NCBI GenBank assembly: GCA_964512695.1
Contig: CAZEJU010000003.1
Location: 9,897-73,896 of the forward strand
Reading direction: 5' to 3'
Source of the DNA: an uncultured Gammaproteobacteria bacterium
GTDB taxonomy: Bacteria > Patescibacteriota > Microgenomatia > Levybacterales > UBA12049
DNA length: 64,000 nt
The position numbers and the translations under genes were made by a program. The notes below the pieces were generated by a model, which made no database searches, had not been told where the DNA came from, and saw only the letters and a list, made by a program, of their open reading frames with translations. This document shows positions 10,493-60,847 of the stretch, piece by piece. How positions within the stretch are numbered: the stretch's first letter is position 1; every line of letters begins with the position of its first letter.

Positions 10493-10493
10493 A

Positions 10494-14313: not shown

Positions 14314-14420
14314 ATAGTAATAATAATTATAGCTAAAAGTTGGATTGTAATAAGTGTAGAATTGCTTATATTTCCACAATCTAACTTCTAGCATCTAGAC
14401 TCAACTTGTCTAGTATACCA

Positions 14421-34750: not shown

Positions 34751-34768
34751 AAAAGGAAATTAATAATT

Positions 34769-35742: not shown

Positions 35743-35791
35743 GATGGATTTATTTTACTATACTTGAAGCTAACTTAACAAATTTTAGCTA

Positions 35792-36061: not shown

Positions 36062-36112
36062 CTCCGTCAGTTATGCATTATTAACAAAGACCGTCTAAAT
36101 TGTAGTATAACT

Positions 36113-37129: not shown

Positions 37130-37182
37130 AACGTGGCTTAGTATAGAAGGTTACAAAGAAAGGTTCAACTGTAAAATACATT

Positions 37183-37710: not shown

Positions 37711-37753
37711 TATTTATAATCTTTACAAGTACAGATCATGAAGTCAAGAGAAG

Positions 37754-41900: not shown

Positions 41901-42440
41901 ATGGCAAAAGATATCCTGTCCATCAATTTGCTAGATGATAAACAAAAAAGCTTTACTGACACTATTCTCGACTGGGCAATTTATATCGGCCGTTTACTTG
42001 TAATTATTACTGAAGCAGTAGCCTTATTCGTTTTTATTAATCGCTTTACGCTGGATAGAAAGCTTATCGATCTTCATGATGAAATTAAGAAGAATCAATC
42101 CTTTATAGGATATATGCAAAGTCGTGAAGAAATATACAGAGGAATACATGAAAAACTACAAACGAACTTTATCAGCAGTACAGACAACGATGAAAGAATA
42201 ATCCTCTTTGAAGAACTTACTAGTAATGTGAATCCTCAGTTAAGTATTCTTAGCTTCTCAGTAAATCCTTCTTCTTTAACCATTGCGGTACAAGCACGTT
42301 CTATACAAGCGCTTTCTGATTTCCATGAAAAAGTAAAACAACACCCATCCATCGCTTCAATTACCGTCGATAAAATAGAAAATAAGACAGCAAACGCCAT
42401 AATTCTTGTTTCCTATACGGCAAAGCTAAAAGCTAAATAA
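41901..42440 (+). CDS. PilN-like type IV pilus assembly protein
   Basis: N-terminal INLL(D) motif followed by a single TM and an about 120-aa periplasmic domain, of typical PilN length. Confidence 0.5.
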   Translation: MAKDILSINLLDDKQKSFTDTILDWAIYIGRLLVIITEAVALFVFINRFTLDRKLIDLHDEIKKNQSFIGYMQSREEIYRGIHEKLQTNFISSTDNDERIILFEELTSNVNPQLSILSFSVNPSSLTIAVQARSIQALSDFHEKVKQHPSIASITVDKIENKTANAIILVSYTAKLKAK

Positions 42441-42442: not shown

Positions 42443-43057
42443 ATGATATTTTTTAAACAAACTTTTTTAAAGGATTTCGCAAAAGAGAGGTATATGGCAA
42501 TTGTACGTGCGTATCCTCGACTCCAGGAGGATAAAACACAACGATATATTCTACTAACGTTGACGTTCCTAGCTTTATCATTTTTAGGAATATTAGCTAT
42601 AAATCCAACACTAAAAACTATTACAGAGTTAAATAAGAAACTCGAGGATAGTGAATTTGTTAATCAGGCCCTTAAAACAAAACTTGCTAATCTCTCTTCA
42701 TTAAATAGTCAATATGAACGTATGTCTACTGATATACCTCTTATTGAAGCAGCTGTACCTAGTTCTGCTCAAGCGCCTTTCCTACTGGGACAATTACGAA
42801 CACTGGCAAAGACTACTGATGTAACAATTACCAGTCTTCAAACATACCAAATCAACATGACACAACAGAAAATTACTCCACCTAGAACTGTTAATTTTAT
42901 CTTTACCTTAAGTATAGAGGGTGAAAAAAGTAACTTAGTAGATTTTCTTCATGCTTTAAATTCATTTGATAGAACTGTCGTTATTGAGTCATTACATTTT
43001 ATAAGTGAGGAAGAACAACGCTTAACAATTCGCGCAAAAGCATTTTTCATACCATGA
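42443..43057 (+). CDS. PilO-like type IV pilus assembly protein
   Basis: Short cytoplasmic N-terminus, one TM, a coiled-coil, then a C-terminal domain ending LVDFLHALNSFDRTVVIESLHF...RLTIRAKAFF, typical of PilO. Start overlaps the PilN-like stop. Confidence 0.45.
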   Translation: MIFFKQTFLKDFAKERYMAIVRAYPRLQEDKTQRYILLTLTFLALSFLGILAINPTLKTITELNKKLEDSEFVNQALKTKLANLSSLNSQYERMSTDIPLIEAAVPSSAQAPFLLGQLRTLAKTTDVTITSLQTYQINMTQQKITPPRTVNFIFTLSIEGEKSNLVDFLHALNSFDRTVVIESLHFISEEEQRLTIRAKAFFIP

Positions 43058-43410
43058 AAAAAAGGAAATATACAATTCAAAAAGATCTGACGATCTTGTC
43101 ATTTTCTCTGTTTGTAGTAGTTACACTATGGATCGCATTTACCATACACGGAATCTATGTCACAAGCACTATTAGTGATACATTGCAAATACAGATAGTT
43201 CCTATTAAAGGTGTTTTTGATGAATCCAGTATAGAAATTATCAAAAACAGAACTCCAATAATTCCTGATTATTCCGCAAGTGTATCAGCAAATACACTCC
43301 GTATTAATGCTTTACCTATTGATCAACCGCAACCAACGTCCGAAGTAACTCTTACACCAACTGATGTATTTTTACCGAATAGTACATCTAGCGCAGAGCC
43401 ATCCTTATGA
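43054..43410 (+). CDS. small single-TM protein (PilP-like position)
   Basis: Translationally coupled (4-nt overlaps on both sides); no motif. Confidence 0.35.
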   Translation: MKKRKYTIQKDLTILSFSLFVVVTLWIAFTIHGIYVTSTISDTLQIQIVPIKGVFDESSIEIIKNRTPIIPDYSASVSANTLRINALPIDQPQPTSEVTLTPTDVFLPNSTSSAEPSL

Positions 43411-44870
43411 AACCAACAATCTTGAATAAAAAAATACCATCATATCTTGGATTTCTATCACTAATTTTAATGATACCCATAATTGCGTGGATAGTCGAAA
43501 ATAATACTGTCGTACCCGTCAGAGCAAACCCGGATCATACACCACAAGATGTACAGATTAGTAACATTACTGACAACTCTTTTACTATCTCTTATACAAC
43601 AATTGAAGCTACTATCGGTTCTGTCTCATATGGACCGACAGACAAACTGGGTCAAATAGCATTTGATATTCGAGATACCGCTCGTGGAAAACCATTACCT
43701 CACCGAGTCCATTATTTCGACATAAAAGGTCTTCAACCTAATACAACGTATTACTTCATATTACTGTCTGGTAATACGACGTATAAAAAAGACAATAAGC
43801 CATACGCTATAACCACAGGGCCAACTCTCTCCCAGACACAAACTAGTAGAAAAATCGCAGGAAACGTTTTGCTACCAAACGGCAGCTATCCTGGAGAGAC
43901 AGTTGTATATGCAATAAGTAGTACTTCACAACTTCTTTCAAAACTGGTAGAAGTAGACGGATCTTTCTCCATAGATAATTCATCCCTACGAACTAGTACG
44001 CTTGATTCGTATGCGGAAGAACAAGAAACTGCAGAGTTTCAAATACGTTTAGTAAACAGTGATATGCAAACGTACATGAATGTTTTATCGAAAGATCTAG
44101 ATTCACTCCCTACGGTTACTCTGTCGAAAAACTATGATTTTACTTATGAATTACTTCCTACTAAATCACTGGACAACAACGTAAATCTCTTAGATACCGC
44201 AGAGCTTTTCCCAGAATATTCGACAAATACTACGTTTAGCCAAACTCCTCAGATTATAGTGCCAAAGAAAGATCAAGCATTTGATGATCTCCAACCGGAA
44301 TTCCGTGGATCTGCTCCCCCTTCTAAAAATATCGAAATTAGTTTTGATACAGCGACTACAAAAGTAACTGTAAGAACTACTGCAACAGGAACATGGTTAT
44401 ATAGACCAAAACAGCCAATGACAGCAGGTAATCATACGATTATCGTCAGCATGAAAGATATATCAGGCATGACGCTAACAACGTCTCAAACCTTTGCTAT
44501 TCATGCTATAGGTAGCCAGTTTTTTGCTCCATCACCAACTGTCTCTCCTACAGCAATACCATCTCCAAGTCCATCACTAAACCCATCACCTATAGCATCG
44601 CCTTCTGTATCACCTGCTCAACCATCAATATCGCCCTCACCTTCGATATCCGTAAGTCCCACAGTATCACCTATACTGTCACCCACGGAAATTCTTATAC
44701 CTTCACCAACGTTAATTCCTAGCCCTACACAAATAACAGTATCGCTTCCACCAGCATCTCCCGTACCTAGTCTGACGCCTACTGGTAGTGGTACTGCAGT
44801 CCTCACGTTTGGCTTTGCGCTATTTGCTACGATTACAGGTGTTGTGTTATTCTTTTTAACTCATACATAA
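43407..44870 (+). CDS. large cell-surface protein: N-terminal TM/signal, FN3-like domain, C-terminal Ser/Pro/Thr-rich repeat and C-terminal TM anchor
   Basis: VQISNITDNSFTISYTT...PNTTYYFILLSG (FN3-like). SPTVSPTAIPSPSPSLNPSPIASPSVSPAQPSISPSPSISVSPTVSPILSPTEILIPSPTLIPSPTQ repeat. Terminal hydrophobic helix. Confidence 0.55.
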   Translation: MKPTILNKKIPSYLGFLSLILMIPIIAWIVENNTVVPVRANPDHTPQDVQISNITDNSFTISYTTIEATIGSVSYGPTDKLGQIAFDIRDTARGKPLPHRVHYFDIKGLQPNTTYYFILLSGNTTYKKDNKPYAITTGPTLSQTQTSRKIAGNVLLPNGSYPGETVVYAISSTSQLLSKLVEVDGSFSIDNSSLRTSTLDSYAEEQETAEFQIRLVNSDMQTYMNVLSKDLDSLPTVTLSKNYDFTYELLPTKSLDNNVNLLDTAELFPEYSTNTTFSQTPQIIVPKKDQAFDDLQPEFRGSAPPSKNIEISFDTATTKVTVRTTATGTWLYRPKQPMTAGNHTIIVSMKDISGMTLTTSQTFAIHAIGSQFFAPSPTVSPTAIPSPSPSLNPSPIASPSVSPAQPSISPSPSISVSPTVSPILSPTEILIPSPTLIPSPTQITVSLPPASPVPSLTPTGSGTAVLTFGFALFATITGVVLFFLTHT

Positions 44871-44874
44871 ATCT

Positions 44875-46146
44875 ATGAATATAGGTATTATTGGAGCTGG
44901 ATTTACCGGACTATCAGCAGGATATCAACTTACAAAAAGAGGCCATTCAGTTACCATCTTTGAGAAAGATCTTCAACCCGGAGGACTAGCAATTGGTTAT
45001 AAGGAGAAAGAATGGGAATGGTCACTTGAGAAACATTACCACCATTGGTTCACAAACGATAAATTTATTTTAAACCTTGCGAGAGAAATTGGTCATAAAG
45101 TATTCATCCGTCGTCCAGAAACATCAGCATATATTGATGATAATATTTACCAACTTGATTCTCCATTAAAAGTATTACAGTTTCCACAACTTTCAATTGT
45201 TGATCGTGTTCGAATGGGAGTTGCATTAGCAGCTCTCCGGTATAATCCTTTTTGGCAGCCATTAGAAAAAATATATGCAGTTCCTGTATTAAGGGAAACA
45301 ATGGGAGAAAAGTCCTATAAAATGCTTTGGGAACCCCAACTTAAAAATAAGTTTGGTACGTATTTTAAAAATGTATCACTTGCATGGTTTTGGGCACGTA
45401 TAAAAAAACGAACATCATCACTTGCGTATCCGGAAGGTGGATTTTTACATTTTGCCGAACACCTTATCGATGTAATAAAAGAAAATGGAGGAAACGTAGT
45501 ATTTAATGCAGAGATTTCGGAATTAAGGGATGATGGACAAAAAACAACACTTATGAAAGAAAAAAAATTGCATACCTTCGATAAAGTACTCGTAACACTT
45601 CCGTCTGTTTTTTTTATAAATATTACTCCTCAACTTCCTAAAACTTATACTGATAAACTGACAAGACTAAAAGGTTTAGGTGCAACGAATCTTGTTTTAC
45701 GTCTTAACAAACCTTTTTTCAAAACGAAAACATACTGGCTAAGCGTTTGTGATACAACATCACCTATTATGGCAATCGTAGAACATACAAATTTTATGGA
45801 TAGAAAATATTACAATAATGAACATATCGTGTATTTAGGAAACTATGTTGGAACGACTCATCCATACTTTTCCATGACTGAAGAAGAAATGCTCGCACAC
45901 TTTCATCCATTTTTAAAGAAAATAAATCCAAAATACAAAGATTCGTTAATCAGTATGAAGCTTTTTAAAGCACCGTTTGCACAACCTATTATTCCTACTA
46001 ACTATTCTCGATTGATTCCCCCTATGGCGACTCCTTTAAAAAATGTCTTTCTTGCAAATATTGAACAAGTGTATCCTTGGGATAGAGGAACAAACTATGC
46101 AGTAGAGTTAGGTGAGAAAGTAGCAAAGCTTATTGTAAACGAATGA
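44875..46146 (+). CDS. FAD/NAD(P)-binding oxidoreductase (amine-oxidase / phytoene-desaturase / UDP-galactopyranose-mutase-like fold)
   Basis: N-terminal Rossmann motif IGIIGAGFTGLSAGYQL...VTIFEKDLQPGGLA. Confidence 0.6.
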   Translation: MNIGIIGAGFTGLSAGYQLTKRGHSVTIFEKDLQPGGLAIGYKEKEWEWSLEKHYHHWFTNDKFILNLAREIGHKVFIRRPETSAYIDDNIYQLDSPLKVLQFPQLSIVDRVRMGVALAALRYNPFWQPLEKIYAVPVLRETMGEKSYKMLWEPQLKNKFGTYFKNVSLAWFWARIKKRTSSLAYPEGGFLHFAEHLIDVIKENGGNVVFNAEISELRDDGQKTTLMKEKKLHTFDKVLVTLPSVFFINITPQLPKTYTDKLTRLKGLGATNLVLRLNKPFFKTKTYWLSVCDTTSPIMAIVEHTNFMDRKYYNNEHIVYLGNYVGTTHPYFSMTEEEMLAHFHPFLKKINPKYKDSLISMKLFKAPFAQPIIPTNYSRLIPPMATPLKNVFLANIEQVYPWDRGTNYAVELGEKVAKLIVNE

Positions 46147-46240
46147 ATTTTCCATTTTCCAAGTTTCATTTTCCAACAAATCAAGATTTGAAATTACTAA
46201 ATAATCAATGGCAAAATGAAAAATGACAAATGGAAAATTT
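46146..46240. repeat. imperfect palindrome (TTTTCCA/ATGGAAAA-type arms) spanning the annotated start of the first GT-C gene
   Basis: Left arm aattttccattttccaagtttcattttccaa. The reverse complement of the right arm is aaattttccatttgtcatttttcattttgcca. Confidence 0.6.
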
Positions 46241-47957
46241 CGGACAACAAATACAGCAGAAAACTACAATACTTCTTTTTATATTAATGTTAATTGGTGT
46301 TTTTCTCCGTTTCTATAATCTAAATTGGGGCGCTCCTTACTATTTTCATCCTGATGAACGAAATATTATCAGTTCAGTTACTCAGTTACGGTTTCCTGAT
46401 CAGACGAATCCACATTTTTTTGCGTACGGATCTATTCCTATTTATACCATTTATGGCATTGGAGTAATACAGAATATCGTGACTTCCTGTTTTTATAGTA
46501 CTCTATGTCCTATAACGAAACTTCTTGTAGAGAAACAAACCCCGCTCTGGAATGAAATAAATATTGTTACATTTAATGATGCAATACTTATAGCCAGGAG
46601 TATATCAGCATTTTTTTCTCTACTTCTTATTCCCCTTGTCTTTATTATAGGAAAAAAAGTGCATACACAGAAAACAGGATTACTAAGCGCTTTTTTTACA
46701 GTAACTAGTGTTGGGCTACTTCAATATGCACATTTTGCGACATTTGAATTATGGCTTACTTTCTTTAGCGTCTTAGCTTTGTATTATAGTCTAAAAATAG
46801 CTGGAGATCATCATACCGGTGATATATTAATTCTTGGCGTTCTTATGGGAATCTTAGTCGGTATAAAAATATCCAGCCTTGTACTTTTACCACTACCTTT
46901 TCTTGCTATTTTTTATGGATGTTTTAGGGACATAAAACTAGTAAAGAAAAATTTACCAATACTGGGTAAGACTGCGTTACTTTTTATGGCAGAAGCTCTC
47001 TGTTTATTGCTTTTAGGAGCGATCATATTTATGATAACTAACCCTTTTGTTCTCTTAGATGTAACCTCTTTTCAAGATTCAATAGACTATGAAGTTAGTG
47101 TCGCTAATGGATCTCTTATTGTTTTCTATAACCAATTATTTCGTGACACAATACCAGGCATTTATCAGCTCTTCCATGTTTATCCCTTTCTCATTAATCC
47201 GCTTCTTACATTTCTACTTATTCCCACACTGCTGGTTACATTCTTTCTTAGTAAAAAAGAAAAAAATACTTCATTATTTTTTGTATTCCTCACTTTTATG
47301 ATCCTTTTCATATCCCAGGCTTTTCTGTTCGTAAAATGGGTACGGTATATGATTCCAACCCTACCATTTTTTTATGTGATGTTTTCAGTTGTAGTAATGA
47401 CAATATCAACCAATAAAAAATTTGCAGCTTATAGGAAGTATCTTATATTTTCTCTGGTTAGCATAAGTAGCATCTATACATTCTCCTATTTTGTCACAGT
47501 TATCGCCAAAGAGGATACAAGGTTACAAGCAAAAACATGGATTGAAAGATTTACAAGTACTAACAAAAAAGTTCTCAGTGAGTCGTATGATCCCGGCAGT
47601 ATGGCATTTACTGGAATCTTTTCTGAAATAACATATTGCAATATCTATGACCTTGAAATACACCTCAAGGTTTGTGAAGATGTTTCTTTAGAACATAAAC
47701 TGAAAGATGTAACATATATCTTATTACCTAGTGAAAGAGTTGTGCAATCTCGCTTAGTGAATAAAAAACGATTTCCCAGAGGATACAATTTCTATACATC
47801 CTTATTTACTGACAAAGAAAGTTATAAGCTTGTATACAAAACTCCATGTGACATATTCTGTAAAATTCTTTATATGGGTAATAAATTACTTCTTGAGCAG
47901 ACCGCTTATGTTTTCGATAGACCGACAGTTTATGTTTTCGAAAAAATTAAACAATGA
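46230..47957 (+). CDS. GT-C fold glycosyltransferase (PMT/ArnT, GT39/GT83-like), copy 1
   Basis: HPDERN in the first extracytoplasmic loop after TM1 and about 12 TM helices. Start may be downstream at the Met near 46290. Confidence 0.6.
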   Translation: MENFGQQIQQKTTILLFILMLIGVFLRFYNLNWGAPYYFHPDERNIISSVTQLRFPDQTNPHFFAYGSIPIYTIYGIGVIQNIVTSCFYSTLCPITKLLVEKQTPLWNEINIVTFNDAILIARSISAFFSLLLIPLVFIIGKKVHTQKTGLLSAFFTVTSVGLLQYAHFATFELWLTFFSVLALYYSLKIAGDHHTGDILILGVLMGILVGIKISSLVLLPLPFLAIFYGCFRDIKLVKKNLPILGKTALLFMAEALCLLLLGAIIFMITNPFVLLDVTSFQDSIDYEVSVANGSLIVFYNQLFRDTIPGIYQLFHVYPFLINPLLTFLLIPTLLVTFFLSKKEKNTSLFFVFLTFMILFISQAFLFVKWVRYMIPTLPFFYVMFSVVVMTISTNKKFAAYRKYLIFSLVSISSIYTFSYFVTVIAKEDTRLQAKTWIERFTSTNKKVLSESYDPGSMAFTGIFSEITYCNIYDLEIHLKVCEDVSLEHKLKDVTYILLPSERVVQSRLVNKKRFPRGYNFYTSLFTDKESYKLVYKTPCDIFCKILYMGNKLLLEQTAYVFDRPTVYVFEKIKQ

Positions 47958-49642
47958 CAAAATATATATCAAAAGAAAGAATTGTTTTTTTATTTATCTT
48001 ATTACTTGCAGCTTTTCTCCGATTTATAAATCTTGATTGGGATCAAGGACAACATTTACATCCTGATGAAAGATTTCTTACGATGGTGGTCAATAAAATA
48101 ACAATTCCCAAATGGTTTAATGAATATTTAAACCCATCTTTATCGAGTCTTAACCCTGTAAATAACGGGTTTGATTTTTTTGTTTACGGTTTATTTCCTC
48201 TTACGATAGCTAAATTCTTTGCAGTATGGACAAATAATGATACGTATGCAACATTTACAGTTTTAGGGCGATGTATCTCTGCTTTCTTTGATTTAATAGC
48301 GGTTATCCTTGTCTATAAAATAGTTGACCTTTTGGGGAAACATTCCAAGCTTCATCACCATACCAAATATTATGCAATGTTTTTCTATGCGATAGCAGTC
48401 CTTCCTATCCAGCTCTCTCATTTCTATGCATCTGATACTTTTTTAAATACTCTTTTTCTTTTTTCAGTATTCTTTATTCTGAAATTTTATTATTTCTCTT
48501 CTTATGCTTCTCTTATAGGTAGCGGGATATTCTACGGACTGGCGTTCTCTTCAAAGGTTAGTGCTATATATGGGGCACCTTTAATTGGTTTTTTTTTATT
48601 TTTCGGATTAGTAAAAAAGAGTTTTAAAGACAAAAAAAATATCCTGTATCTTCTCACTTCTACTTTTTTAACAACTATACTTTTCAGTATTTCGTGCTAT
48701 TTCACAGTAAGAATAGCTAACCCGTATATGTTTTCTTCAGCAAATCTTTTCGATCCCCGGATTAATCCTCAATTTTTTGAAAGTCTTAAGATGTTAAAAT
48801 CCTGGGAAGGCTACGACACTTGGTTTCCTCCAGCAATTCAATGGATTAATAAAATGCCTGTATTATTTAGTCTAATAAACATGGCTATTTTCGGAATTGG
48901 TATTCCATACTTTCTTCTAGTTCTTGCGGGCATAGCATATGTATTGACCAAGAAACGAAAAAGTATTCTTTTTATTCTCGTCTTTTGGTTTCTAGGTATT
49001 TTTATTTATCAGTCAATACAATTCGTGAAAGTAATGCGATATTTTATTTTTCTCTATCCATTTCTAGCGCTTTTATCTGCCATAGGGTTTCAACACCATT
49101 TGCAAAAACAAAAAAATATGATTAAAGGTACTATTCTTTTTATATGTTTTCTATGGCCTCTATCATTTATTTCAATTTACCTACATCCACACTCACGAGT
49201 AACAGCATCTACGTGGATTTATGCCAATATACCTAATAATAGTATCCTCTTAAGTGAATATTGGGATGATGCCTTACCACTACCTATCATGAGTCAGTCT
49301 AAACATTTTTTTGTAGAACAATTACATGTATTTGATCCAGACACTTCAGAAAAATGGCATGAGATGGAACGTCTTCTTTATCAAGCTGACTATTATATTT
49401 TATCGTCAAATCGCGCTTGGGGGAGTATTTCGACAGTTCCTGAGAAATATCCTCGAATGAGTAAATTTTATAAAGATTTATTCGCAGGAAAAACACAATA
49501 TATGAAAGTTCATGAGATAACTTCTTATCCCTCGCTTTCGTATCTAGGAATACCTATTACATTCATTGATGATTGGAGCGACGAATCATTTACTGTATAT
49601 GATCACCCGAAAGTTATTATTTTTAAAAATGTTGCTAAATAA
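47954..49642 (+). CDS. GT-C fold glycosyltransferase (PMT/ArnT-like), copy 2 (tandem paralog)
   Basis: LHPDERFL loop-1 motif and a polytopic membrane protein. 4-nt overlap with copy 1. Confidence 0.6.
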   Translation: MTKYISKERIVFLFILLLAAFLRFINLDWDQGQHLHPDERFLTMVVNKITIPKWFNEYLNPSLSSLNPVNNGFDFFVYGLFPLTIAKFFAVWTNNDTYATFTVLGRCISAFFDLIAVILVYKIVDLLGKHSKLHHHTKYYAMFFYAIAVLPIQLSHFYASDTFLNTLFLFSVFFILKFYYFSSYASLIGSGIFYGLAFSSKVSAIYGAPLIGFFLFFGLVKKSFKDKKNILYLLTSTFLTTILFSISCYFTVRIANPYMFSSANLFDPRINPQFFESLKMLKSWEGYDTWFPPAIQWINKMPVLFSLINMAIFGIGIPYFLLVLAGIAYVLTKKRKSILFILVFWFLGIFIYQSIQFVKVMRYFIFLYPFLALLSAIGFQHHLQKQKNMIKGTILFICFLWPLSFISIYLHPHSRVTASTWIYANIPNNSILLSEYWDDALPLPIMSQSKHFFVEQLHVFDPDTSEKWHEMERLLYQADYYILSSNRAWGSISTVPEKYPRMSKFYKDLFAGKTQYMKVHEITSYPSLSYLGIPITFIDDWSDESFTVYDHPKVIIFKNVAK

Positions 49643-50419
49643 TTATTTTTTCTTCGCTGCTATAAAAAGATAAGGACCTTTTTTCGTATTCTGTTGTGTT
49701 TCTCGTAAAATAACAGACTCCAAATTCCCTAAATATTTTTCTTTTTTTGGAAAAAGAACCCATCTATTAAATATTTTTTTTGTGAGTAGAGAACTAACAC
49801 TTAAATAATGACTGATATCAAAAAGCCACATGATTTTTTTATTATCTAAATAATGTTGAAATTCTATAATTTCTAAGTTATTCGTTTCAAGTTTTTTACT
49901 CCAGGTTTTAACGCTATACATGTTGTAATGTTTCGATTTCTTAACAAAAAACCTTTTGTAAAAGTTGCCTAAGAAGAGGCTACCAAATAAATATTTAGGC
50001 CAGATATCTGTTACAGTTGTAAAATATAGCATCCCTCCTTTTTTTAGTACTCTTGCTGTCTCTAAGAGTACTTCATCGATATTCGAGATATGCTCATATG
50101 TAGAATTACAAACGATTGTATTAAATGTAGCCTTAGGATACGGTATTACCTTACCATCATAGGGTTTAATTTCTTTATACACCTTTCTTTTTTTAGCTTC
50201 TTTTATTGCTGAGCCATTGGGATCAATTCCTGCATCTACTTGGTCAAAAGCAACCTCTGCAAAAAAACCATCTCCACAACCCAAATCGAGTACTGGTTTT
50301 TTAAAAGGTTTATACTTTTGATATAAACTTACTTCTTTAGGTCTAACAATGGAGAAGAAAAATGGTTTTTCTTTAAGAAATGCTTTTAAGTAACTCTTCA
50401 TAAAAAACAATTGTATCAC
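49643..50419 (-). CDS. class I SAM-dependent methyltransferase
   Basis: VLDLGCGDGFF motif I. Confidence 0.7.
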   Translation of the reverse strand: MIQLFFMKSYLKAFLKEKPFFFSIVRPKEVSLYQKYKPFKKPVLDLGCGDGFFAEVAFDQVDAGIDPNGSAIKEAKKRKVYKEIKPYDGKVIPYPKATFNTIVCNSTYEHISNIDEVLLETARVLKKGGMLYFTTVTDIWPKYLFGSLFLGNFYKRFFVKKSKHYNMYSVKTWSKKLETNNLEIIEFQHYLDNKKIMWLFDISHYLSVSSLLTKKIFNRWVLFPKKEKYLGNLESVILRETQQNTKKGPYLFIAAKKK

Positions 50420-51515
50420 GGAAAGAAAATGTTTTCATTAAAGTTTTTCTACTTCTCATATATTTTTTTTTGTTTTTAAATATAATAGCTATTTTATATG
50501 CAATATCTTCACTATTTTTTGGTTCTACTAACTCACCCATACCAGTAACGCTAATAGGTACTCTGACGCCTGGCAAATCGGAAGCAACGACAGGCACACC
50601 TGAAAACATAGCCTCAACTTGAACCATTCCAAATGCTTCTGTAGAGTTAATGCTCGGTAGAACCAAAACATCTATCTGTTTATAGAAAGTTTTCATCTCT
50701 TCAGGTGAAATAGCGCCCACAAAAACTATGTTTCTTTTATATTTCTTAATTAATGGTTGCATGCGAATCCAGTACTTATCTTCACCTGCCGGATGTTCAG
50801 GACCAGCAAATACGATAATAAAATTATCTCCTAGTTGTTTTTTAAGGAAAGGTATTGACTCTATTAAAAACTCAAAACCTTTTTCAGCTGCGAACCTTGC
50901 TGCTACTCCAATTACATATTTATTATCTGCTATCTTCTCTGATAATTCCTTCTTTAATTTTTTATTTTCTGTTCCTGTGAAAGGAATTGGGGGATATACG
51001 TAGACAGTTTTATGTAGAAAAAATTTTAAGGTTCTTGAATGTTGTGCATAATCTTTAGTATATGTGATTATTTTCTCTGCAAACAGTAATGTAATATAGT
51101 GAGAAACATCTAAAAAAAATTTAACTATCAGGTTAATAAAGCCTTTCGGAAGAATAACATCACAATGATAAATACAGTAGAATTTCTTTCTTTGTAAAAA
51201 ACAAAAGAGAGAAGTAATACAGCCTTCAAATTGAGGTAGATGAGAAATGACAACTGAAGATTTGTTAATGTTTTTCCAACTTTCTATAAAAAATTTAGGC
51301 ATAAAAAAACCTTTATGTAATTTTATAAAATAAGGTACTCTTTTAATCTGAACATTGTTAACCTCCTCAATAAGGGGGATTTTTTTGTCATGTTGGGTAG
51401 TAAGAACCGTTATTGAATACTTTCTTTTTGCTAAACTTTCTGCTAAACGACTCGCATAAATGGTAAGTCCAGAAATATAAGGGGTATAATACGTGATCGT
51501 AAAAAGAACGTTCAT
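50373..51515 (-). CDS. GT-B glycosyltransferase, family 4
   Basis: C-terminal EAFGMVQVEAMFSGVPVVASDLPG (E-x7-E region). Confidence 0.75.
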   Translation of the reverse strand: MNVLFTITYYTPYISGLTIYASRLAESLAKRKYSITVLTTQHDKKIPLIEEVNNVQIKRVPYFIKLHKGFFMPKFFIESWKNINKSSVVISHLPQFEGCITSLFCFLQRKKFYCIYHCDVILPKGFINLIVKFFLDVSHYITLLFAEKIITYTKDYAQHSRTLKFFLHKTVYVYPPIPFTGTENKKLKKELSEKIADNKYVIGVAARFAAEKGFEFLIESIPFLKKQLGDNFIIVFAGPEHPAGEDKYWIRMQPLIKKYKRNIVFVGAISPEEMKTFYKQIDVLVLPSINSTEAFGMVQVEAMFSGVPVVASDLPGVRVPISVTGMGELVEPKNSEDIAYKIAIIFKNKKKYMRSRKTLMKTFSFRDTIVFYEELLKSIS

Positions 51516-51550
51516 GAAATTTTCTGAATGGAATCAATGTTATTTCTTAT

Positions 51551-52537
51551 CTATGTGACTAATTTCATTATTCCTTCACCTTTATTCGTTTTGGGTTGCC
51601 AGTGTAAAATTTCTTTTAATTTCGAGTTGTCTGATATATAAACATCCTGATCTCCTGGTCTTTTATCTTTAAAAACTGTTGTGATGTTCGTATGTAGTAT
51701 GTCTTTTAATTCTTCTATACTTTCTAAAAGAGAAATTGTATTTTCCTTTCCACCACCTATATTAAATATTTCACCTGCTACTTTACTCCTACACTTTATG
51801 GCAGCTTCATAAGCTTCGATAAGATCAGATATGTATAAGATATCGCGTACTTGGTATCCTGTTCCATAAATAGTAATTTTGTTCTTTTGTAAAGCCTTTA
51901 TCACAAAATGTGCTAACCAACCTTGATCTTCTATTCCAAATTGGTGTTCACCATAAATGCAAGACTGTCGAAAAACTAATGTAGGTATATCATAAATTCT
52001 TGCATAATCGCGAACATACTGATCTGCTGCGCCTTTAGAACAACCATATGGTGAATAGAAATCTAATGGTTGTTGCTCGGAGATACCATTTGGGTATGTA
52101 ATATCTATATATCTTTTATCTGTATGTTTAATAGTTCCTTTAGAGTTACCATATACTTTATTTGTAGAGCTATAGATTATTAGTGGTTTATGTTTTGCTA
52201 AACGGGCTTGTTCTAAAATATTAAAAGTACCCAAAACATTCACTTCAAAATCATATCTTGGATCTTTAATCGAAGTAGTTACCGCTACTTGACCAGCTAA
52301 ATGAATAATTACTTCATTTTCTTTTATATACTGTTTTATGGAAGAAGCATCTCGGATATCTGCCGTAATTATTTTAACTTTAGGAAATAAAGCAGCAATA
52401 TGTTGGGCATTTAAAGGTGTCCCTTTCCGGGAAAAATTGTCAAGGATTGTAACATCATGACCGTTTTCTAAAAAAAAAAGCGCTGTATTAGTACCTATAA
52501 AACCTGCTCCTCCAGTGATTAAAATTTTCATATACAA
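51551..52537 (-). CDS. NAD-dependent nucleotide-sugar epimerase/dehydratase (extended SDR)
   Basis: KILITGGAGFIGTN, SSTNKVYG, YGCSKGAADQY (YxxxK). Confidence 0.8.
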   Translation of the reverse strand: MYMKILITGGAGFIGTNTALFFLENGHDVTILDNFSRKGTPLNAQHIAALFPKVKIITADIRDASSIKQYIKENEVIIHLAGQVAVTTSIKDPRYDFEVNVLGTFNILEQARLAKHKPLIIYSSTNKVYGNSKGTIKHTDKRYIDITYPNGISEQQPLDFYSPYGCSKGAADQYVRDYARIYDIPTLVFRQSCIYGEHQFGIEDQGWLAHFVIKALQKNKITIYGTGYQVRDILYISDLIEAYEAAIKCRSKVAGEIFNIGGGKENTISLLESIEELKDILHTNITTVFKDKRPGDQDVYISDNSKLKEILHWQPKTNKGEGIMKLVT

Positions 52538-52649
52538 TAAGTTATTCTAGCAAAAACATATCATGAATTATATACACCTTCTATTCAAATTTATAGATAT
52601 GTATCATAGATTCAGAAGTCTAGCTTAGACACTGCAAATCTGTAGTCGA

Positions 52650-53210
52650 GTGGTATATAATAACCTAATCATGAGAATAGGATTTGACCTAGATAATATT
52701 TTTATTAATCACCCGCCCTTTATTCCAGGCAGTATAATTGAACGGTTATATCGGAAAAAAACAAATGGGTCTTTAGAGTATAGAATACCATCTCACTATG
52801 AACAGTTTGTCCGTCGAATTTCGCACGCAGCTTTTTTACGTCCACCTATCAAAAGTAATCTAGAGATTCTCAGCTCTATTCAAAAGAATAAACATTTATT
52901 ATATCTTGTCTCAAGTCGATTCGGTTTTTTGAAAAAACCGACAGAACAGTTAGTTAAAAAATATAAATTGAACTCATTGTTTTCCGAACTGTATTTTAAC
53001 TTTCATAATAAACAACCTCATGAATTTAAGGATGAAATTATTAGAAAGCTTAAAATCGATATATATATTGATGATGATTTATACCTGTTGAAATATATTG
53101 CAGGTAAAAATAATAAAGTAAAATTATTCTGGCTGAACAACAAAAATAATAAAAGAATAAGTCAAAATATAACCGCTATTACATCCCTAAAAGATATCTT
53201 TAAAGAGTAG
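52650..53210 (+). CDS. hypothetical protein, possibly HAD-like
   Basis: GFDLDNIF and IYIDDD resemble HAD motifs I and IV. Confidence 0.3.
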   Translation: MVYNNLIMRIGFDLDNIFINHPPFIPGSIIERLYRKKTNGSLEYRIPSHYEQFVRRISHAAFLRPPIKSNLEILSSIQKNKHLLYLVSSRFGFLKKPTEQLVKKYKLNSLFSELYFNFHNKQPHEFKDEIIRKLKIDIYIDDDLYLLKYIAGKNNKVKLFWLNNKNNKRISQNITAITSLKDIFKE

Positions 53211-53215
53211 ACAAT

Positions 53216-55837
53216 ATGATTTCCAGTGACTTTTTATTTATTATTCAATGGTGGATTCTTCTTTTTCTCCTAGGCATTTTGTTCATACCTTTGACTGTGA
53301 AGCTTTTTTCTAACTTTTGGGATAAAGGATATGCTTTTTCTAAAGTTCTAGGTATCATTCTCTCAAGTTATACGATATTTCTTCTAGGCGTTCTAAAAAT
53401 AGTTCCTTTTACAACTTTCACTATTTACCTAGTATTTTTAGTCCTAGGTATTACTTTATTTGTCAAGTTCAGAAACTTTAGGCAAGAAATATTTGACAAA
53501 AAGATAATTAGGATCTGGTTTTTTGAAGAAATACTCTTCTTTTTGGGCCTTTGGTGGTGGTCTATAGTACGTGCATATAACCCTGAAATCTTTGGATTAG
53601 AAAAATATATGGATTTTGGATTTGTTAACACTATCCTTCGCTCAACATATTTTCCACCTATAGATATGTGGTATCCACCTGAACCCATAAATTATTACTA
53701 TTTCGGGCATCTCATGACAGCAGTCCTAACAAAAGCCTCAGCAATTCCTTCACACATAACTTACAATCTTATGATTGCTACACTTTTTGCTTTGACATTT
53801 ACTCAATCGTTTTCTCTAGGTAGTACCCTTATTAGAAAATTACATGATAAAACTTTTTCTATAAGAAAAGTAGTTCTAGGAGGAATACTCATTGCTTGTC
53901 TTATCACACTCGCTGGCAATTTACACGTTTTCTATGCATTTTTCAAACCATACGAAGCAGATAAACCAAAACCCTTTTGGGAACTAGAATTGTCTCTAAA
54001 AAATCCATGTTACCAAAAAGATTTTTATGAAAAAGATCTTGGTGACGGTACTTTTGAAACAGTTAACTGTTCTCTAGAAGATAAAAAAAAGGTTTCTTTA
54101 TTTCCAAATTCTTACTGGTATCCCAATGCTACCCGTTTTATTTACCACACTATTCATGAATTCCCTATATATTCTTGGGTAGTTGCAGACCTTCATGGAC
54201 ATGTTGCTGATATACCCACTGTTATTTTAAGTATTGCATTTCTTTTCGCTATTTTTCTTACTCATCAAGAAAAAATTAATAAAAAAGCATACACGAGATC
54301 CAAGAAGAATATCATTATTCATGTTTTAACTGTCAGTAAGGAATTTATATTTTTTGGATTTCTTCTCGCTATTATGTTTATGACAAATGCGTGGGATGCA
54401 TTGACATATCTTTTATTAGCGGGTTTATTGCTGCTGTATCTGCAATGGTATCGAACTGTTATTATAAAACAAGATAATATACACCCAGTACAGGTATTAG
54501 TTCCCTCTCTCAGTAACAAAAATCTGCAGAAATACTTCCATCACCATACTATTCTTAATATAGTAACTGGAGCAGCAGTTTATGGAATTGTAATATTATT
54601 TTCATTCTTTGTTTTTTCAAGACCATTTGCGATATTTTTTAATGCTTCTCAAATTGTGGGTGGTATAGGTGTACTTAATGTCCCTTCTTTTATGTTAGAA
54701 AAAAAATCTTTAGATCCTCAAAAAAAAGTCTACGGTCATGATCACCGTCCATTACTATCGAAAATAATTCTACCTGACCACTGCAGGAGTTTATTAACTC
54801 CTGAAGAAACAGATCTAATAACAACACAATATGAAACCAGAAAGATTGGGCCGTTTCTTTTTGAACCAGATCACTGTCTTCGTTCACCGTGGTGGCAATT
54901 ATTAATACTCTATGGATTTTTTTATTTTTTTGTAATTTCTCTAGGATTATTTCTTTGGAAAAAACAAAAAAATATTACTGATATTTTTATCTTTCTTCTT
55001 ATTATTGCTTCTTCTTTGTTAATTATTATTCCTGAGTTTTTTTACATGAAAGATATTTATCCTGATCATTATAGAGCTAACACTATGTTCAAGCTCGTCT
55101 TTCAAGCCTTTATCATGCTTTCTATCGTTTCAGGTTATACAATCTTCCGCATACTTTCTAAGAAAGATCTTTTACGAGCTTCTTTATATCGTAGAACTGC
55201 CTATGTACTTTTTCTTCTATGCTCGACGATTCTATTAACACTTGTATTTACCTATCCGTATTTTGCCATAACTTCTTACTATGCTGGTTATAAAGAGGAT
55301 ATCGATAAAACTATATGTACTACTTTCTCTCCTTATCTTATCTTTATGAAAATAATGACGAAGGAAGAACAGGAAAAATGTTCTTTGAAAACGTCGAAAT
55401 ACATTGGACTGAATGGTTTAATCTATTTAAAAAATCGAAACCTAGTTGATAAAGATGAAGATTTTAAAGCTATTATGTGGTTTAATCAACAAATCAAAGG
55501 TCAGCCTTTCATTCTTGAAGCACAAGGAGATTCTTATTCTGAATATCAACGTATATCATCAAATACTGGACTACCTACTGTTCTTGGATGGTATGTTCAC
55601 GAATGGTTATGGAGGGGAGAAAGCACACCTAAGCCTCGTGCAGATGATATTAAAACATTATATGAATCAGTTAATATACCTGAAACAAAACAATTACTTG
55701 AAAAGTATAGTATTCAATATGTTGTTATAGGTCGGCTGGAGAAAGAAAAGTACGCTAACATCTCTGTTCAAAAGTTTAAAGAACTGGGAAGGGAAGTGTT
55801 CAAAGTGGGGGATACGGTTATTTATGAAATTTTATAG
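53216..55837 (+). CDS. large polytopic membrane protein of the YYY-motif (Chlor_Arch_YYY/DUF2298-like) family; putative glycosyltransferase or polymerase
   Basis: 873 aa with more than 15 TM helices. WYPPEPINYYYFGH motif and a C-terminal soluble domain. Confidence 0.45.
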   Translation: MISSDFLFIIQWWILLFLLGILFIPLTVKLFSNFWDKGYAFSKVLGIILSSYTIFLLGVLKIVPFTTFTIYLVFLVLGITLFVKFRNFRQEIFDKKIIRIWFFEEILFFLGLWWWSIVRAYNPEIFGLEKYMDFGFVNTILRSTYFPPIDMWYPPEPINYYYFGHLMTAVLTKASAIPSHITYNLMIATLFALTFTQSFSLGSTLIRKLHDKTFSIRKVVLGGILIACLITLAGNLHVFYAFFKPYEADKPKPFWELELSLKNPCYQKDFYEKDLGDGTFETVNCSLEDKKKVSLFPNSYWYPNATRFIYHTIHEFPIYSWVVADLHGHVADIPTVILSIAFLFAIFLTHQEKINKKAYTRSKKNIIIHVLTVSKEFIFFGFLLAIMFMTNAWDALTYLLLAGLLLLYLQWYRTVIIKQDNIHPVQVLVPSLSNKNLQKYFHHHTILNIVTGAAVYGIVILFSFFVFSRPFAIFFNASQIVGGIGVLNVPSFMLEKKSLDPQKKVYGHDHRPLLSKIILPDHCRSLLTPEETDLITTQYETRKIGPFLFEPDHCLRSPWWQLLILYGFFYFFVISLGLFLWKKQKNITDIFIFLLIIASSLLIIIPEFFYMKDIYPDHYRANTMFKLVFQAFIMLSIVSGYTIFRILSKKDLLRASLYRRTAYVLFLLCSTILLTLVFTYPYFAITSYYAGYKEDIDKTICTTFSPYLIFMKIMTKEEQEKCSLKTSKYIGLNGLIYLKNRNLVDKDEDFKAIMWFNQQIKGQPFILEAQGDSYSEYQRISSNTGLPTVLGWYVHEWLWRGESTPKPRADDIKTLYESVNIPETKQLLEKYSIQYVVIGRLEKEKYANISVQKFKELGREVFKVGDTVIYEIL

Positions 55838-56965
55838 AGCTTCTTCTGTAGGAATTGGAGTAACAGAACAATTATCGCTTCCATTTTTAATTAAACAGTT
55901 AACATAGGAGTGTATTTGAGAGTAATTATCACTTCCGAGACGAGGAACTATAACCCACTGATAGCCAAACTCTTCATTTGTTTGTGGATTAATGAATAAA
56001 CCTAGTGCTTCAGATTGTTCTCCTCCTACGTTTAATACAGCACTTTCGATCTTAGCTTCTCTCATCTTTTCTGCCAGTTTTACAAAATCATCATACTCTT
56101 CCTTCTTAATATCTGTATCAATACTATCTTGTATTATATCCACTAAACTAAGTACTTTTACAGGATTCAACACTGTACCTGCAGAAAAAATCTTATCTTT
56201 AAATGCCCTAATAACTCTTTCCTGTCTTTGACTTCTTGAGAAGTCGGAACCTTCTACACCTAAAGCGTGACGTGAACGCACATATTTCAATGCTGTTTCA
56301 CCATTCATTTGAGTTATACCTTTATCAAAATGAAGATGTTCATATCTGCATGGAAATGCTTCTAACTGTGCCTCTTCAGTAGCTCGTCTTTGGAACTCTT
56401 CATCTTTAAAGCCGCAATCATCTTCTTCCTTACCTGCAATAGGGTATTCATAATCATCAAATGTTCGTTCCACATCCACATCTATTCCTCCGATGGTATC
56501 AACAGCTTTTATAAAGCCATTAAAGTCTATACGAAAACCATAATCTATATGTTGGCCAAGAATTTCTGAGACTACTTTTTTTGCTTCTTGCAGACCAGAG
56601 CCTTTTTCTTTAGCCTCTGCGTAGGCATAAATAGTATTTATTTTTGCTCGTAGTCGAGAAACCCATAAATCGCGAGGTAGAGATATCAGCACTGCTTTTT
56701 TTGCTTCGGGGTCAATGCTAGCAAGAATGATCGTGTCCGTTAACAGAGGACCTTCATGTCTACCTCCTCCAATTCCGAGCAGAAGAATATTTATCCTTTG
56801 TTCCTTTGTTTTTTTTAATTCTATATTTTTATTAAATGTATATTCGTATACTGGGGTAATAAACTGAAAGATCTTCGTGATTAATAAAAATGCTCCTATT
56901 AAAAAAAGGAGTCCTAAAAGGAAAAAAATTCGTTCTCGTATTGGTTTTTTACGTTTTATGGGCAT
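55832..56965 (-). CDS. LytR-CpsA-Psr (LCP) family cell-envelope glycopolymer ligase
   Basis: N-terminal TM, INILLLGIGGGRHEGPLLTDTIILASIDP...ISLPRDLWV. Confidence 0.8.
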   Translation of the reverse strand: MPIKRKKPIRERIFFLLGLLFLIGAFLLITKIFQFITPVYEYTFNKNIELKKTKEQRINILLLGIGGGRHEGPLLTDTIILASIDPEAKKAVLISLPRDLWVSRLRAKINTIYAYAEAKEKGSGLQEAKKVVSEILGQHIDYGFRIDFNGFIKAVDTIGGIDVDVERTFDDYEYPIAGKEEDDCGFKDEEFQRRATEEAQLEAFPCRYEHLHFDKGITQMNGETALKYVRSRHALGVEGSDFSRSQRQERVIRAFKDKIFSAGTVLNPVKVLSLVDIIQDSIDTDIKKEEYDDFVKLAEKMREAKIESAVLNVGGEQSEALGLFINPQTNEEFGYQWVIVPRLGSDNYSQIHSYVNCLIKNGSDNCSVTPIPTEEAL

Positions 56966-59782: not shown

Positions 59783-60847
59783 ATGGTAATAAAAGAAATT
59801 ACTGAACATGATAAAAAAGCATTCAATAAAGTAGTATCCCATCCTCTCCAATCCTATGAGTGGGGTGAATTTCGGAAAAAAACAAACGTAAAAGTTATAA
59901 GACGTGGTATTTTTAAAACTAACAAACTCATTGATGGGTTTCAATTAACGATACACCCTATCCCTAAGACACCGTGGACAATTGGATATCTGCCGAAAGG
60001 CAATATTCCCACTGAAGAGGTTCTTCATGAACTGAAAGTAATTGGAAAAGCAGAAAAATGTATCTTTATTCAGTTAGAACCGAATGTAAAGGCAAGAGAA
60101 GGCAGATTACAAATAAACAATATAATTCATAATTCTCAGTTCTTAATGCATAATTCCGAACATCCTCTTTTTACGAAATATACATTTATTCTCAATCTTA
60201 CAAAATCAGAAGAAGAGCTATTAAAAAGTATGCATTCTAAGGCAAGATATAACATTAAGATTGCGAAAAAACATGGCGTTGAAATCATATTTAACTCCTC
60301 AGAAGAAACATTACAAACTTTTCTCCGTTTAAATAGTGAAACAAATACTAGACAAAAATTTTATACTCGTCCGGATTGGCACTTTAAAGAAATGAAAAAG
60401 TTATTTAATGAATTTCCAGTAGACGATAAAAATCAACCTAGGGAAGGGGATAGCGATGATCATTTAAGGATGCAAATCTTAACAGCCACATATAAAAGTA
60501 AACCTTTAGTTTCGTGGATTCTATTTTCTTTTCATGATACGTTATATTATCCCTATGGAGCGTCAAGCAGTGAACATCGAGAGGTTATGGCATCTAGCCT
60601 TATAATGTGGGAAGCAATACGCTTAGGTAAAAACTTACGTCTTAAAAATTTTGATATGTGGGGTGCGCTAGAACCGAATCCAGATCCACAGAATCCTTGG
60701 TTTGGTTTTCATACTTTTAAACAAAAGTATGGACCTGAACATGTAGAGTTCATAGGAAGTTATGATTTTATTATTAATAAATCACTTTACCAAGTTTACA
60801 AAATAGCTAATAAACTACGCTGGCTTTATTTACGTTTTAAAAAGTAA
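59783..60847 (+). CDS. FemAB/FemX-family peptidoglycan bridge aminoacyltransferase
   Basis: Collinear resemblance to FemX (QSYEWGEF, KSMHSKARYNIKIAKK, YYPYGASS..H...A...I.WEAI, FKQKYG). Confidence 0.6.
   Translation: MVIKEITEHDKKAFNKVVSHPLQSYEWGEFRKKTNVKVIRRGIFKTNKLIDGFQLTIHPIPKTPWTIGYLPKGNIPTEEVLHELKVIGKAEKCIFIQLEPNVKAREGRLQINNIIHNSQFLMHNSEHPLFTKYTFILNLTKSEEELLKSMHSKARYNIKIAKKHGVEIIFNSSEETLQTFLRLNSETNTRQKFYTRPDWHFKEMKKLFNEFPVDDKNQPREGDSDDHLRMQILTATYKSKPLVSWILFSFHDTLYYPYGASSSEHREVMASSLIMWEAIRLGKNLRLKNFDMWGALEPNPDPQNPWFGFHTFKQKYGPEHVEFIGSYDFIINKSLYQVYKIANKLRWLYLRFKK

Follow-up and report, generated by a model that had tools for sequence, protein, structure and literature searches.

Introduction

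Glycosyltransferases of the GT-C superfamily share a common logic, in which a sugar is transferred from a polyprenyl-phosphate carrier on the outer face of the membrane. Here, we describe a gene module for enzymes of this superfamily in a 64-kb stretch of contig CAZEJU010000003.1 (hereafter, the window), whose nearest relatives are Candidatus Levyibacteriota (Microgenomates, candidate phyla radiation (CPR)) genomes assembled from metagenomes. The window encodes two paralogous GT-Cs (GT-C1 and GT-C2) together with a flavin adenine dinucleotide (FAD)-dependent oxidoreductase, a large membrane protein of the DUF2298 family, and a surface protein with a Ser/Pro/Thr-rich stalk (hereafter, the stalk protein). 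These genes belong to a real, conserved, and uncharacterized surface-glycosylation module, in which three GT-Cs probably add sugars to the cell surface. A preliminary description of this DNA had proposed a dedicated pathway for protein O-glycosylation or for a surface glycopolymer; a conserved module beside the stalk protein is borne out by our analysis, whereas the identity of the acceptor and the dedication of the pathway are not.

Several described systems can be compared with this locus. The protein O-mannosyltransferases (PMTs) of family GT39 include Pmt1, Pmt2, and Pmt4 of yeast and actinobacterial Pmt (e.g., Rv1002c). Unlike these enzymes, the window pair reaches only the PMT_2 profile, at 28 bits, and carries a C-terminal alpha/beta domain in place of MIR and PMT_4TMC; in addition, the window set includes a FAD enzyme and DUF2298, and no polyprenyl-phosphate mannose synthase is encoded in the cluster. 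In comparison with the oligosaccharyltransferases (OSTs) AglB, STT3, and PglB, the window GT-Cs have neither a WWDYG nor a DxD motif, their family matches the STT3-type model TIGR04154 weakly, and no sequon-type acceptor is implied. Likeness to archaeal Agl23 and Chlor_Arch_YYY is seen in the membership of DUF2298 in TIGR03662, in recurrent weak matches of the GT-Cs to TIGR03663, and in a DE motif near the N-terminus of both. The system differs from Agl23 in that these matches fall far below membership, in being bacterial, and in having two paralogues and a FAD enzyme; moreover, Agl23 has been reported as a flippase rather than a transferase. To our knowledge, the transferase for the stalk O-glycosylation step in Archaea is still unknown.

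In Pseudomonas aeruginosa, TfpW is a GT-C enzyme encoded directly downstream of pilA and modeled on ArnT, which adds D-arabinofuranose oligomers to pilin (bioRxiv 10.1101/2020.04.19.049825). The window resembles this system in that a GT-C enzyme occurs in a type IV pilus gene context, TfpW being a modifier of Ser/Thr in a surface protein. By contrast, tfpW adjoins pilA and its product has a TPR C-terminal domain, whereas the GT-Cs described here have pilN/pilO-like and sortase-type neighbors, and homologues of DprE1, DprE2, and UbiA are absent here. The mycobacterial suites for arabinogalactan and lipoarabinomannan (LAM), which comprise Emb, Aft, PimE (GT87), and Lcp1, likewise have multiple GT-Cs in a locus with an adjacent LCP protein. 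The flavoenzyme, short-chain dehydrogenase/reductase (SDR), and phosphatase-like protein near the GT-Cs of the window loosely recall DprE1, DprE2, and Rv3807c, and GT87, the family of PimE, occurs at the corresponding site in two relatives. A full-text literature search for DUF2298, PRK07233, the YYY domain, TIGR03662/TIGR03663, and GT-Cs of Patescibacteria returned no relevant paper. The locus represents a new form of GT-C-based extracytoplasmic glycosylation, built from families without a characterized member.

Results

A conserved operon from pilN-like to GT-C2

In the window (G+C about 35%), seven genes on the + strand, between 41901 and 49642, encode a PilN-like protein, a PilO-like protein, a 118-residue protein (p118), the 487-residue stalk protein, the FAD oxidoreductase, GT-C1 (46230–47957), and GT-C2 (47954–49642). 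The successive gaps are 2, −4, −4, 4, 83, and −4 nt; the last of these couples GT-C2 translationally to GT-C1, and the stalk protein is encoded in fourth position in this pilN-pilO-like operon. GT-C2 is followed by genes for a methyltransferase, a GT4 glycosyltransferase, and an extended SDR on the − strand, then by genes for a HAD-like protein and DUF2298 on the + strand, and finally by a convergent gene for an LCP protein. Housekeeping genes flank the region, with EF-G and an EamA transporter upstream and TIM and UvrD downstream. Scans for promoters and terminators were uninformative, with counts at or below the shuffled expectation, and the 64-kb window contains no tRNA gene. The open reading frames (ORFs) listed in the preliminary description were all recovered at their positions, and its domain calls agree with the Pfam/NCBIfam assignments. 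It had overlooked the HAD-like gene, the membership of these genes in a pilN-pilO-like operon, the sortase signal that is frequent in stalk-protein orthologues, and the predicted status of DUF2298 as a third GT-C.

To define the conserved neighborhood, one genome per species was scanned, yielding at least 553 loci encoding relatives. We kept 80 of them and labeled their ORFs by querying them with the window proteins; 75 loci, which have at least 3.5 kb of sequence upstream of GT-C1, were informative. In 65 of these 75 loci, the GT-C pair is preceded by PilN-PilO-(p118)-stalk protein, in agreement with the supposition that the neighborhood is conserved in relatives. The FAD gene lies between the stalk protein and the GT-C pair in nearly all of the 65, being missing in two (L026 and L029), and the conserved order extends to a Chisholmbacteria genome whose GT-C1 is only 31% identical. 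In more than 60 species, the genes from pilN through GT-C2 follow one another at median gaps of −4 to +7 nt, implying co-transcription as a conserved operon. Taken together, the region consists of a single conserved cell-envelope operon (pilN-like to GT-C2), a slot of variable content for sugar tailoring, and the paired HAD-like and DUF2298 genes.

Many contigs with the Levyibacteriota gene order (among L006 to L080) carry the title 'uncultured Gammaproteobacteria' in the public records, and some carry 'Methylomirabilota' or 'Limnocylindrales'; taxonomically, these titles look mistaken. Because the gene order is shared with Levyibacteriota-labeled loci, we disregarded the 'uncultured Gammaproteobacteria' titles. 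In one locus (L002:17369–21713), genes of conjugation type (T4SS_pilin, PrgI-like, TraC-like, and a VirB4/TraG-type ATPase) come after DUF2298 and replace LCP, TIM, and UvrD, marking a synteny breakpoint immediately behind DUF2298.

Sequence, fold, and family of the GT-C pair

GT-C1 and GT-C2 are paralogues, as the preliminary description had stated: they are 24% identical over their full length (E 1e-24), and profile-profile comparison (hhalign) gave E 1.7e-86. The two are always adjacent. An AlphaFold2 model of GT-C1 (pLDDT 89.9) has a clear GT-C fold with about 11–13 membrane helices, compared with an earlier count of 12, and a C-terminal alpha/beta domain predicted to be extracytoplasmic. 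This domain carries an invariant Cys pair, which would fit such a location.

In both proteins, an HPDER motif directly follows the first transmembrane (TM) helix, as previously noticed. In GT-C1, it occupies residues 40–44 (46347–46361, + strand) in the first extracytoplasmic loop, after TM1 (helix 2–28 in the model), and P41, D42, and E43 are invariant in 50 homologues. In GT-C2, it occupies residues 36–40 (48059–48073, + strand), with H36, D38, and E39 invariant. The motif is kept in 73 of 82 GT-C1 and 70 of 73 GT-C2 orthologues, and we take its HPDE(R) site to be where solved GT-C enzymes have their catalytic acidic residues. A GT-C fold and an Asp-Glu pair in the first extracytoplasmic loop are two features shared with PMTs.

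Family assignment is less specific. PMT_2 is matched barely above its cut-off of 26.1 bits by both GT-C1 (28.1 bits) and GT-C2 (28.4 bits), whereas neither window protein has PF02366, PMT_4TMC, or MIR at E ≤ 0.01. Among relatives, PMT_2 was found in 48 of 50 GT-C1 and 69 of 69 GT-C2 proteins, and PF02366 in 2 of 50 and 47 of 69, respectively. PF02366 also covers GT83 ArnT, and is therefore not discriminating for PMT. The model PRK13279 for ArnT, the lipid A aminoarabinose transferase, matched one of the 69 GT-C2 orthologues (E 1.7e-4), none of the 50 GT-C1 relatives, and neither window protein. CPR bacteria are described as having no Gram-negative envelope (PMC6744442), and are thus thought to be without lipid A. 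The structural resemblance to AftA, AftB, and Emb is only distant. With ArnT near-absent and the arabinan transferases distant, neither protein of the pair falls among the lipid A or arabinan transferases.

Searches of GT-C1, GT-C2, and their family profiles by sequence against all PDB chains gave nothing meaningful, and only fold comparison was productive. With the GT-C1 model, Foldseek ranked AglB and STT3 first. By this comparison, the family sits among the ArnT-, PMT-, OST-, and ALG-type GT-Cs, with no choice between them. TIGR04154, the archaeosortase-associated STT3 model, matched 14 of 50 GT-C1 relatives at E ~1e-5. TIGR03663 (Agl23) matched 38 of 69 GT-C2 orthologues (best E 8.2e-9) and 9 of 50 GT-C1 relatives (best E 3.4e-6), all weakly, and neither window protein at E ≤ 0.01. 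Thus, of the earlier domain assignment, the PMT_2 match stands, and a specific identity as PMT, ArnT, or OST does not: the pair has a GT-C fold that is not assignable to any of the three, and its sole specific family signal is the weak similarity to Agl23.

The GT-C family comprises 1,378 clusters (50% identity) at E ≤ 1e-30. In one fusion protein (P0360), a member is joined to a second PMT_2 GT-C. Such a fusion is expected if the GT-Cs act in complexes. P0360 and P0361 (1,125 and 1,184 residues) both fuse a GT-C family member to a second large membrane domain, and the second half of P0361 has no Pfam match.

DUF2298, a predicted third GT-C, and its HAD-like partner

The DUF2298 protein (53216–55837, + strand; 873 residues), described previously as a YYY-motif membrane protein, is a full member of Chlor_Arch_YYY (TIGR03662, 465.1 bits against a cut-off of 300.25; PF10060, 319.4 against 27.8). 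The motif NYYYFG lies at residues 159–164 and is present in 61 of 62 orthologues. Its AlphaFold2 model identifies DUF2298 as a third enzyme with the GT-C fold; it carries a conserved acidic residue (D36) in the predicted first outer loop and has a C-terminal globular domain. The extracytoplasmic C-terminal domain also contains an invariant GW.VHEWLWRG at residues 791–801, loosely recalling the WWDYG of OSTs; the model is weak near this motif, with pLDDT below 50 at residues 763–792.

The 186-residue HAD-like protein (52650–53210, + strand), a small cytoplasmic protein, is the constant partner of DUF2298. Its match to the BT0820 HAD phosphatase family is weak (E 0.004), and direct reading of the sequence reveals DLDN (DxD) and DDD motifs. 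The gene is present in 59 loci, almost always joined in register with DUF2298 at a median gap of 0.5 nt.

The Agl23 similarity raises the alternative that GT-C1 and GT-C2 are mainly Agl23-like translocators of polyprenyl-phosphate sugars, or are associated with a flippase, with DUF2298 as the actual transferase. In accordance with this idea, TIGR03663, named 'flippase activity-associated protein Agl23', is the commonest NCBIfam match of the GT-C2 orthologues, DUF2298 belongs fully to TIGR03662, which co-occurs with TIGR03663 according to its TIGRFAMs annotation, and FAD-GTC1-GTC2-DUF2298 is the portion kept in a CPR3 genome and in loci L072 and L073. Furthermore, purified Haloarcula Agl23 translocates lipid-linked oligosaccharide in proteoliposomes (PMC11182771). 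However, the TIGR03663 matches are all weak and do not include the window proteins, the HPDE(R) motif, almost unchanging in the first outer loop of GT-C1 and GT-C2 alike, is a hallmark of GT-C enzymes that are catalytic, and Dojkabacteria-like loci carry the GT-C pair without DUF2298. We therefore regard a mainly translocating role as unlikely.

Stalk protein, p118, and the PilN/PilO-like pair

The stalk protein (43407–44870, + strand; 487 residues) has an N-terminal signal/anchor, an fn3 domain, a central beta-rich region, a Big_13 Ig-like domain (35.8 bits), a P/S/T stalk, and a C-terminal anchor; the fn3 and Pur_ac_phosph_N matches in Pfam are weak. Because hydrophobic segments lie at both termini (residues 12–30 and 465–483), the section between them is predicted to be extracytoplasmic. 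The stalk (residues 373–458; 44523–44780) is a candidate O-glycosylation or wall-spanning region, with 25 Pro, 22 Ser, and 8 Thr among 86 residues (64%) and 15 SP dipeptides. Its richest 40-residue segment is 70% Ser/Pro/Thr, the highest among all ORFs in the window; the runner-up, at 55% over 40 residues, belongs to a secreted CAP/SCP-domain protein (21–719, + strand). The stalk had been taken for a repeat and is instead a low-complexity stretch, for which Tandem Repeats Finder gave one weak 24-bp × 2 array. A P/T/S-rich linker (37–70% Ser/Pro/Thr) followed by a C-terminal hydrophobic anchor is kept in all 69 distinct orthologues, so the stalk is not a chance feature.

Many orthologues end in LPKTG, LPVTG, LPPTG, or LPATG, then a TM helix, then an R/K tail, which constitutes a classical sortase signal. 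In the window copy, this signal is degenerate (44772–44870, by comparison with the orthologues): LTPTGSG is followed by a hydrophobic helix terminating in FFLTHT, without a basic tail. Sortase has been reported to be near-ubiquitous in Microgenomates (PMC6744442), and the 64-kb window has no sortase gene. Because its motif is degenerate and the window encodes no sortase, classical sortase anchoring of the window copy is not affirmed.

The operon opens with two bitopic membrane proteins, PilN-like (41901–42440, + strand; Pfam PilN, 26.7 bits against 22.8) and, 2 nt downstream, PilO-like (42443–43057, + strand; Pfam PilO, 31.6 bits against 22; TM residues 35–53). Both scores exceed their gathering cut-offs, though marginally, and each protein has one TM helix. 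SINLL is present at the N-terminus of the PilN-like protein, and 37 of 69 orthologues fit a strict INLL-type pattern. In PilN, it is a peptide of the INLL(P) type that binds PilM. In the window, no pilM, pilB, pilC, or pilin gene was found. This pilN/pilO pair may have been separated from a canonical cluster of pilus genes.

The next gene, p118 (43054–43410, + strand), overlaps both neighbors by 4 nt and encodes a bitopic protein (TM residues 13–31) whose ectodomain is conserved and whose C-terminal tail is rich in Ser/Thr/Pro. It has no Pfam match; its orthologues share the motif ATSTIS..LQ.QI.PI..FD and the Ser/Thr/Pro-rich tail. In Gram-negative pilMNOPQ operons, pilP and pilQ follow pilN and pilO. 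Since the position of p118 and the stalk protein mirrors that of pilP and pilQ, by analogy the two may span the envelope as partners of a PilN/PilO scaffold rather than serving simply as substrates.

The operon context also raises the possibility that the GT-Cs glycosylate type IV pilins, as TfpW does, linked through pilN/pilO and not through the stalk protein. The PilN- and PilO-like genes at the head of the operon, with the INLL motif retained, the TfpW precedent, and the enrichment of CPR genomes in type IV pilus genes (PMC6744442) are compatible with such a role. Nevertheless, with the queries used, no pilin, pilB, pilC, pilM, or pilD was detected in the operon or in 84 loci examined, and in distant lineages the GT-C module is not accompanied by pilN/pilO. 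We consider pilins highly improbable as the acceptors.

FAD enzyme, variable slot, and LCP protein

The FAD-dependent oxidoreductase (44875–46146, + strand), predicted to be cytoplasmic, belongs to the amine-oxidase/CrtI/PPO/UGM superfamily and to NCBIfam PRK07233 (NF005560; 414 bits against 252), a family of unknown function. PDB profile matches cover mainly its FAD-binding N-terminus. Among solved structures aligned past that part, over about the first 220–255 residues, the closest are those of the uncharacterized archaeal proteins 3nrn and 3ka7; full-length alignments with monoamine oxidases are weak (E ~1e-7). A role as UDP-galactopyranose mutase (UGM) was rejected because the match is limited to the first ~90 residues (E ~2e-7) and no GLF domain is present. 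We also set aside a DprE1/DprE2-like epimerase role for the FAD enzyme and SDR: the former is in the amine-oxidase superfamily, and the latter is of the extended nucleotide-sugar type and is missing from many loci.

The interval between GT-C2 and the HAD-like gene is variable in content. In the window, this slot contains, all on the − strand, a SAM-dependent methyltransferase (49643–50419; Methyltransf_23, _11, and _31), a cytoplasmic GT4 glycosyltransferase (50373–51515; Glycos_transf_1, 111.6 bits), and an extended SDR of the nucleotide-sugar epimerase/dehydratase type (51551–52537; GDP_Man_Dehyd, 173 bits; Epimerase, 168 bits), whose scores are below the RmlB and GalE equivalog cut-offs. 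Across loci, 84 slot ORFs were counted, including 47 SDR, 10 GT4, 8 extra PMT_2 GT-C, 2 methyltransferase, 2 GT87, 2 DUF362, 1 carbamoyltransferase, and 1 GT2. In the Dojkabacteria-like loci L076 and L082, too, a methyltransferase and GT4 lie between the two GT-Cs or beside them.

The LCP glycopolymer ligase (55832–56965, − strand) scores above cut-off with PF03816 (111 bits against 24.6) and TIGR00350 (98.2 against 62.3) and has an N-terminal membrane anchor (residues 13–31). It is present in 50 of the 75 informative loci, always in synteny with TIM/UvrD, and is absent from the CPR3 locus, L072/L073, and the Dojkabacteria-like loci. LCP is peripheral and is not part of the core module.

Candidate acceptors

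We tentatively favor, as a plausible assignment, Ser/Thr residues in the P/T/S-rich stalks of surface proteins as the acceptors, in the first place those of the p118 tail and the stalk protein. This assignment follows from the operon structure, from the likeness of the GT-Cs to protein-modifying GT-Cs together with their OST-like C-terminal domains, and from the Agl23 link. It is supported by the three GT-C-fold enzymes with conserved acidic first-loop residues, by the weak, recurrent TIGR03663 and TIGR04154 matches among GT-C orthologues, and by the presence of two extracytoplasmic Ser/Thr/Pro-rich segments encoded in one operon.

Several observations weigh against stalk O-glycosylation. In structural comparison, ArnT and ALG12 scored as high as PMT and OST, and neither fold nor profile can separate protein, lipid, and glycan acceptors; no NCBIfam model matched the GT-C1 or GT-C2 of the window. 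The cluster contains no polyprenyl-phosphate sugar synthase of family GT2, which accounts for a single slot ORF. Several GT-Cs next to a slot with GT4, SDR, methyltransferase, GT87, and carbamoyltransferase genes resemble a polysaccharide locus. In addition, EF-G, TIM, and UvrD are kept in the same Levyibacteriota loci, so simple collinearity of the genomes accounts for part of the conservation. Finally, the GT-C pair is also found where the stalk protein is missing. The CPR3 locus (L070) and two 'Saccharibacteria'-labeled loci (L072 and L073) have FAD-GTC1-GTC2-DUF2298 without PilN, PilO, or the stalk protein; four Dojkabacteria-like loci (L076–L078 and L082) have only GTC1-GT4-(methyltransferase)-GTC2, with no stalk protein nearby; and in L083 and two Levyibacteriota loci (L024 and L051) the pair lies in a different context, again with no stalk protein nearby. 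A pathway dedicated to the adjacent stalk protein, as first proposed, is contradicted by these loci. Since its order persists in CPR3 and L072/L073, the robust core consists of the FAD enzyme, the GT-C pair, and DUF2298, with GT4 and methyltransferase as recurrent partners.

These features bear on a different product, a non-protein surface glycoconjugate such as a secondary cell-wall polymer or lipoglycan, comparable to mycobacterial arabinogalactan/LAM or teichoic-acid-like polymers. A lipid-linked primer would be built inside the cell by GT4, SDR, and methyltransferase, extended outside by the GT-Cs with polyprenyl-phosphate sugars, and joined to peptidoglycan by LCP; the adjacency of the stalk protein would then reflect lineage collinearity or shared envelope regulation. 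Such a pathway would account for three GT-Cs in the window and four PMT_2-type GT-Cs plus DUF2298 in the CPR3 locus, for the range of slot genes (SDR, GT4, extra PMT_2, GT87, methyltransferase, carbamoyltransferase, and GT2), for LCP adjoining DUF2298 in two-thirds of the informative loci, and for the separability of the GT-C module from the stalk protein in distant lineages. Against it, LCP always travels with TIM/UvrD and is missing from the distant-lineage loci, the cluster has no initiating phosphoglycosyl transferase, Wzx/Wzy, or ABC exporter, and tight translational coupling with two exported Ser/Thr/Pro-rich proteins is kept across Microgenomates. A polymer of this kind is only slightly less likely than O-glycosylation of the stalks.

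The distant loci contain some further genes. In the CPR3 locus, two additional PMT_2 GT-Cs (1943–3505 and 8938–10515) and a DUF362 protein surround the module. Among the Dojkabacteria-like loci, L082 has a radical-SAM/SPASM gene (13800–14804) between the two GT-Cs, and L077 encodes, two genes upstream, a 911-residue SdrD_B/SpaA/DUF11 surface protein with a Ser/Pro/Thr-rich stretch (6108–8843).

Other genes in the window

Upstream of EF-G, at 33659–38341 on the − strand, are genes for a GH18 glycosidase (with a weak GH85 match), a PIG-L family de-N-acetylase, a GDSL lipase, and an HD-domain protein. In relatives L001–L004, genes for GH18 and PIG-L occupy the same position. These may be additional envelope-glycan genes. 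The window also encodes a 386-residue bactofilin-domain protein (8698–9858, + strand) and, near the cluster, a FemAB-family peptidyl transferase (59783–60847, + strand), a family of peptidoglycan cross-bridge synthesis. At 61890–62330 on the − strand, this small CPR genome carries a gene for a nickel superoxide dismutase (Sod_Ni, E 1e-43).

Discussion

From these results, we propose a putative scheme for the module. In the cytoplasm, SDR, GT4, methyltransferase, the FAD enzyme, and the HAD-like protein would make and tailor sugars, ending on a polyprenyl-phosphate carrier. The carrier-linked sugars would then reach the outer face of the membrane, perhaps aided by the Agl23-like GT-Cs. There, GT-C1 and GT-C2, probably as a heterodimer, and DUF2298 would transfer the sugars by catalysis involving the acidic residues of the first loop (HPDER in the pair and D36 in DUF2298). 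The likeliest acceptors would be Ser/Thr residues of Pro/Thr/Ser-rich stalks, beginning with the p118 tail and the 487-residue sortase-type protein.

A broader hypothesis would extend this scheme beyond Microgenomates. The FAD enzyme, the Agl23-like GT-C pair, and DUF2298 could constitute an unrecognized extracytoplasmic O-glycosylation machine of CPR, Chloroflexi, and Archaea, connected through TIGR03663/TIGR03662, which would decorate the Thr/Ser/Pro stalks of sortase- or archaeosortase-anchored proteins and, in Microgenomates, would be organized by a PilN/PilO-like scaffold. We consider this generalization improbable.

The surfaces of CPR/Patescibacteria mediate attachment to host cells, and their envelope glycobiology is essentially uncharacterized. 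The operon described here ties three GT-Cs of uncharacterized families to a defined candidate substrate. If the Agl23/YYY link holds true, it would bear on the unresolved pathway of archaeal O-glycosylation and on the question of whether Agl23-type proteins act as flippases or transferases. If, instead, a wall polymer is made, the module would be the first candidate pathway for a secondary cell-wall polymer in Microgenomates.

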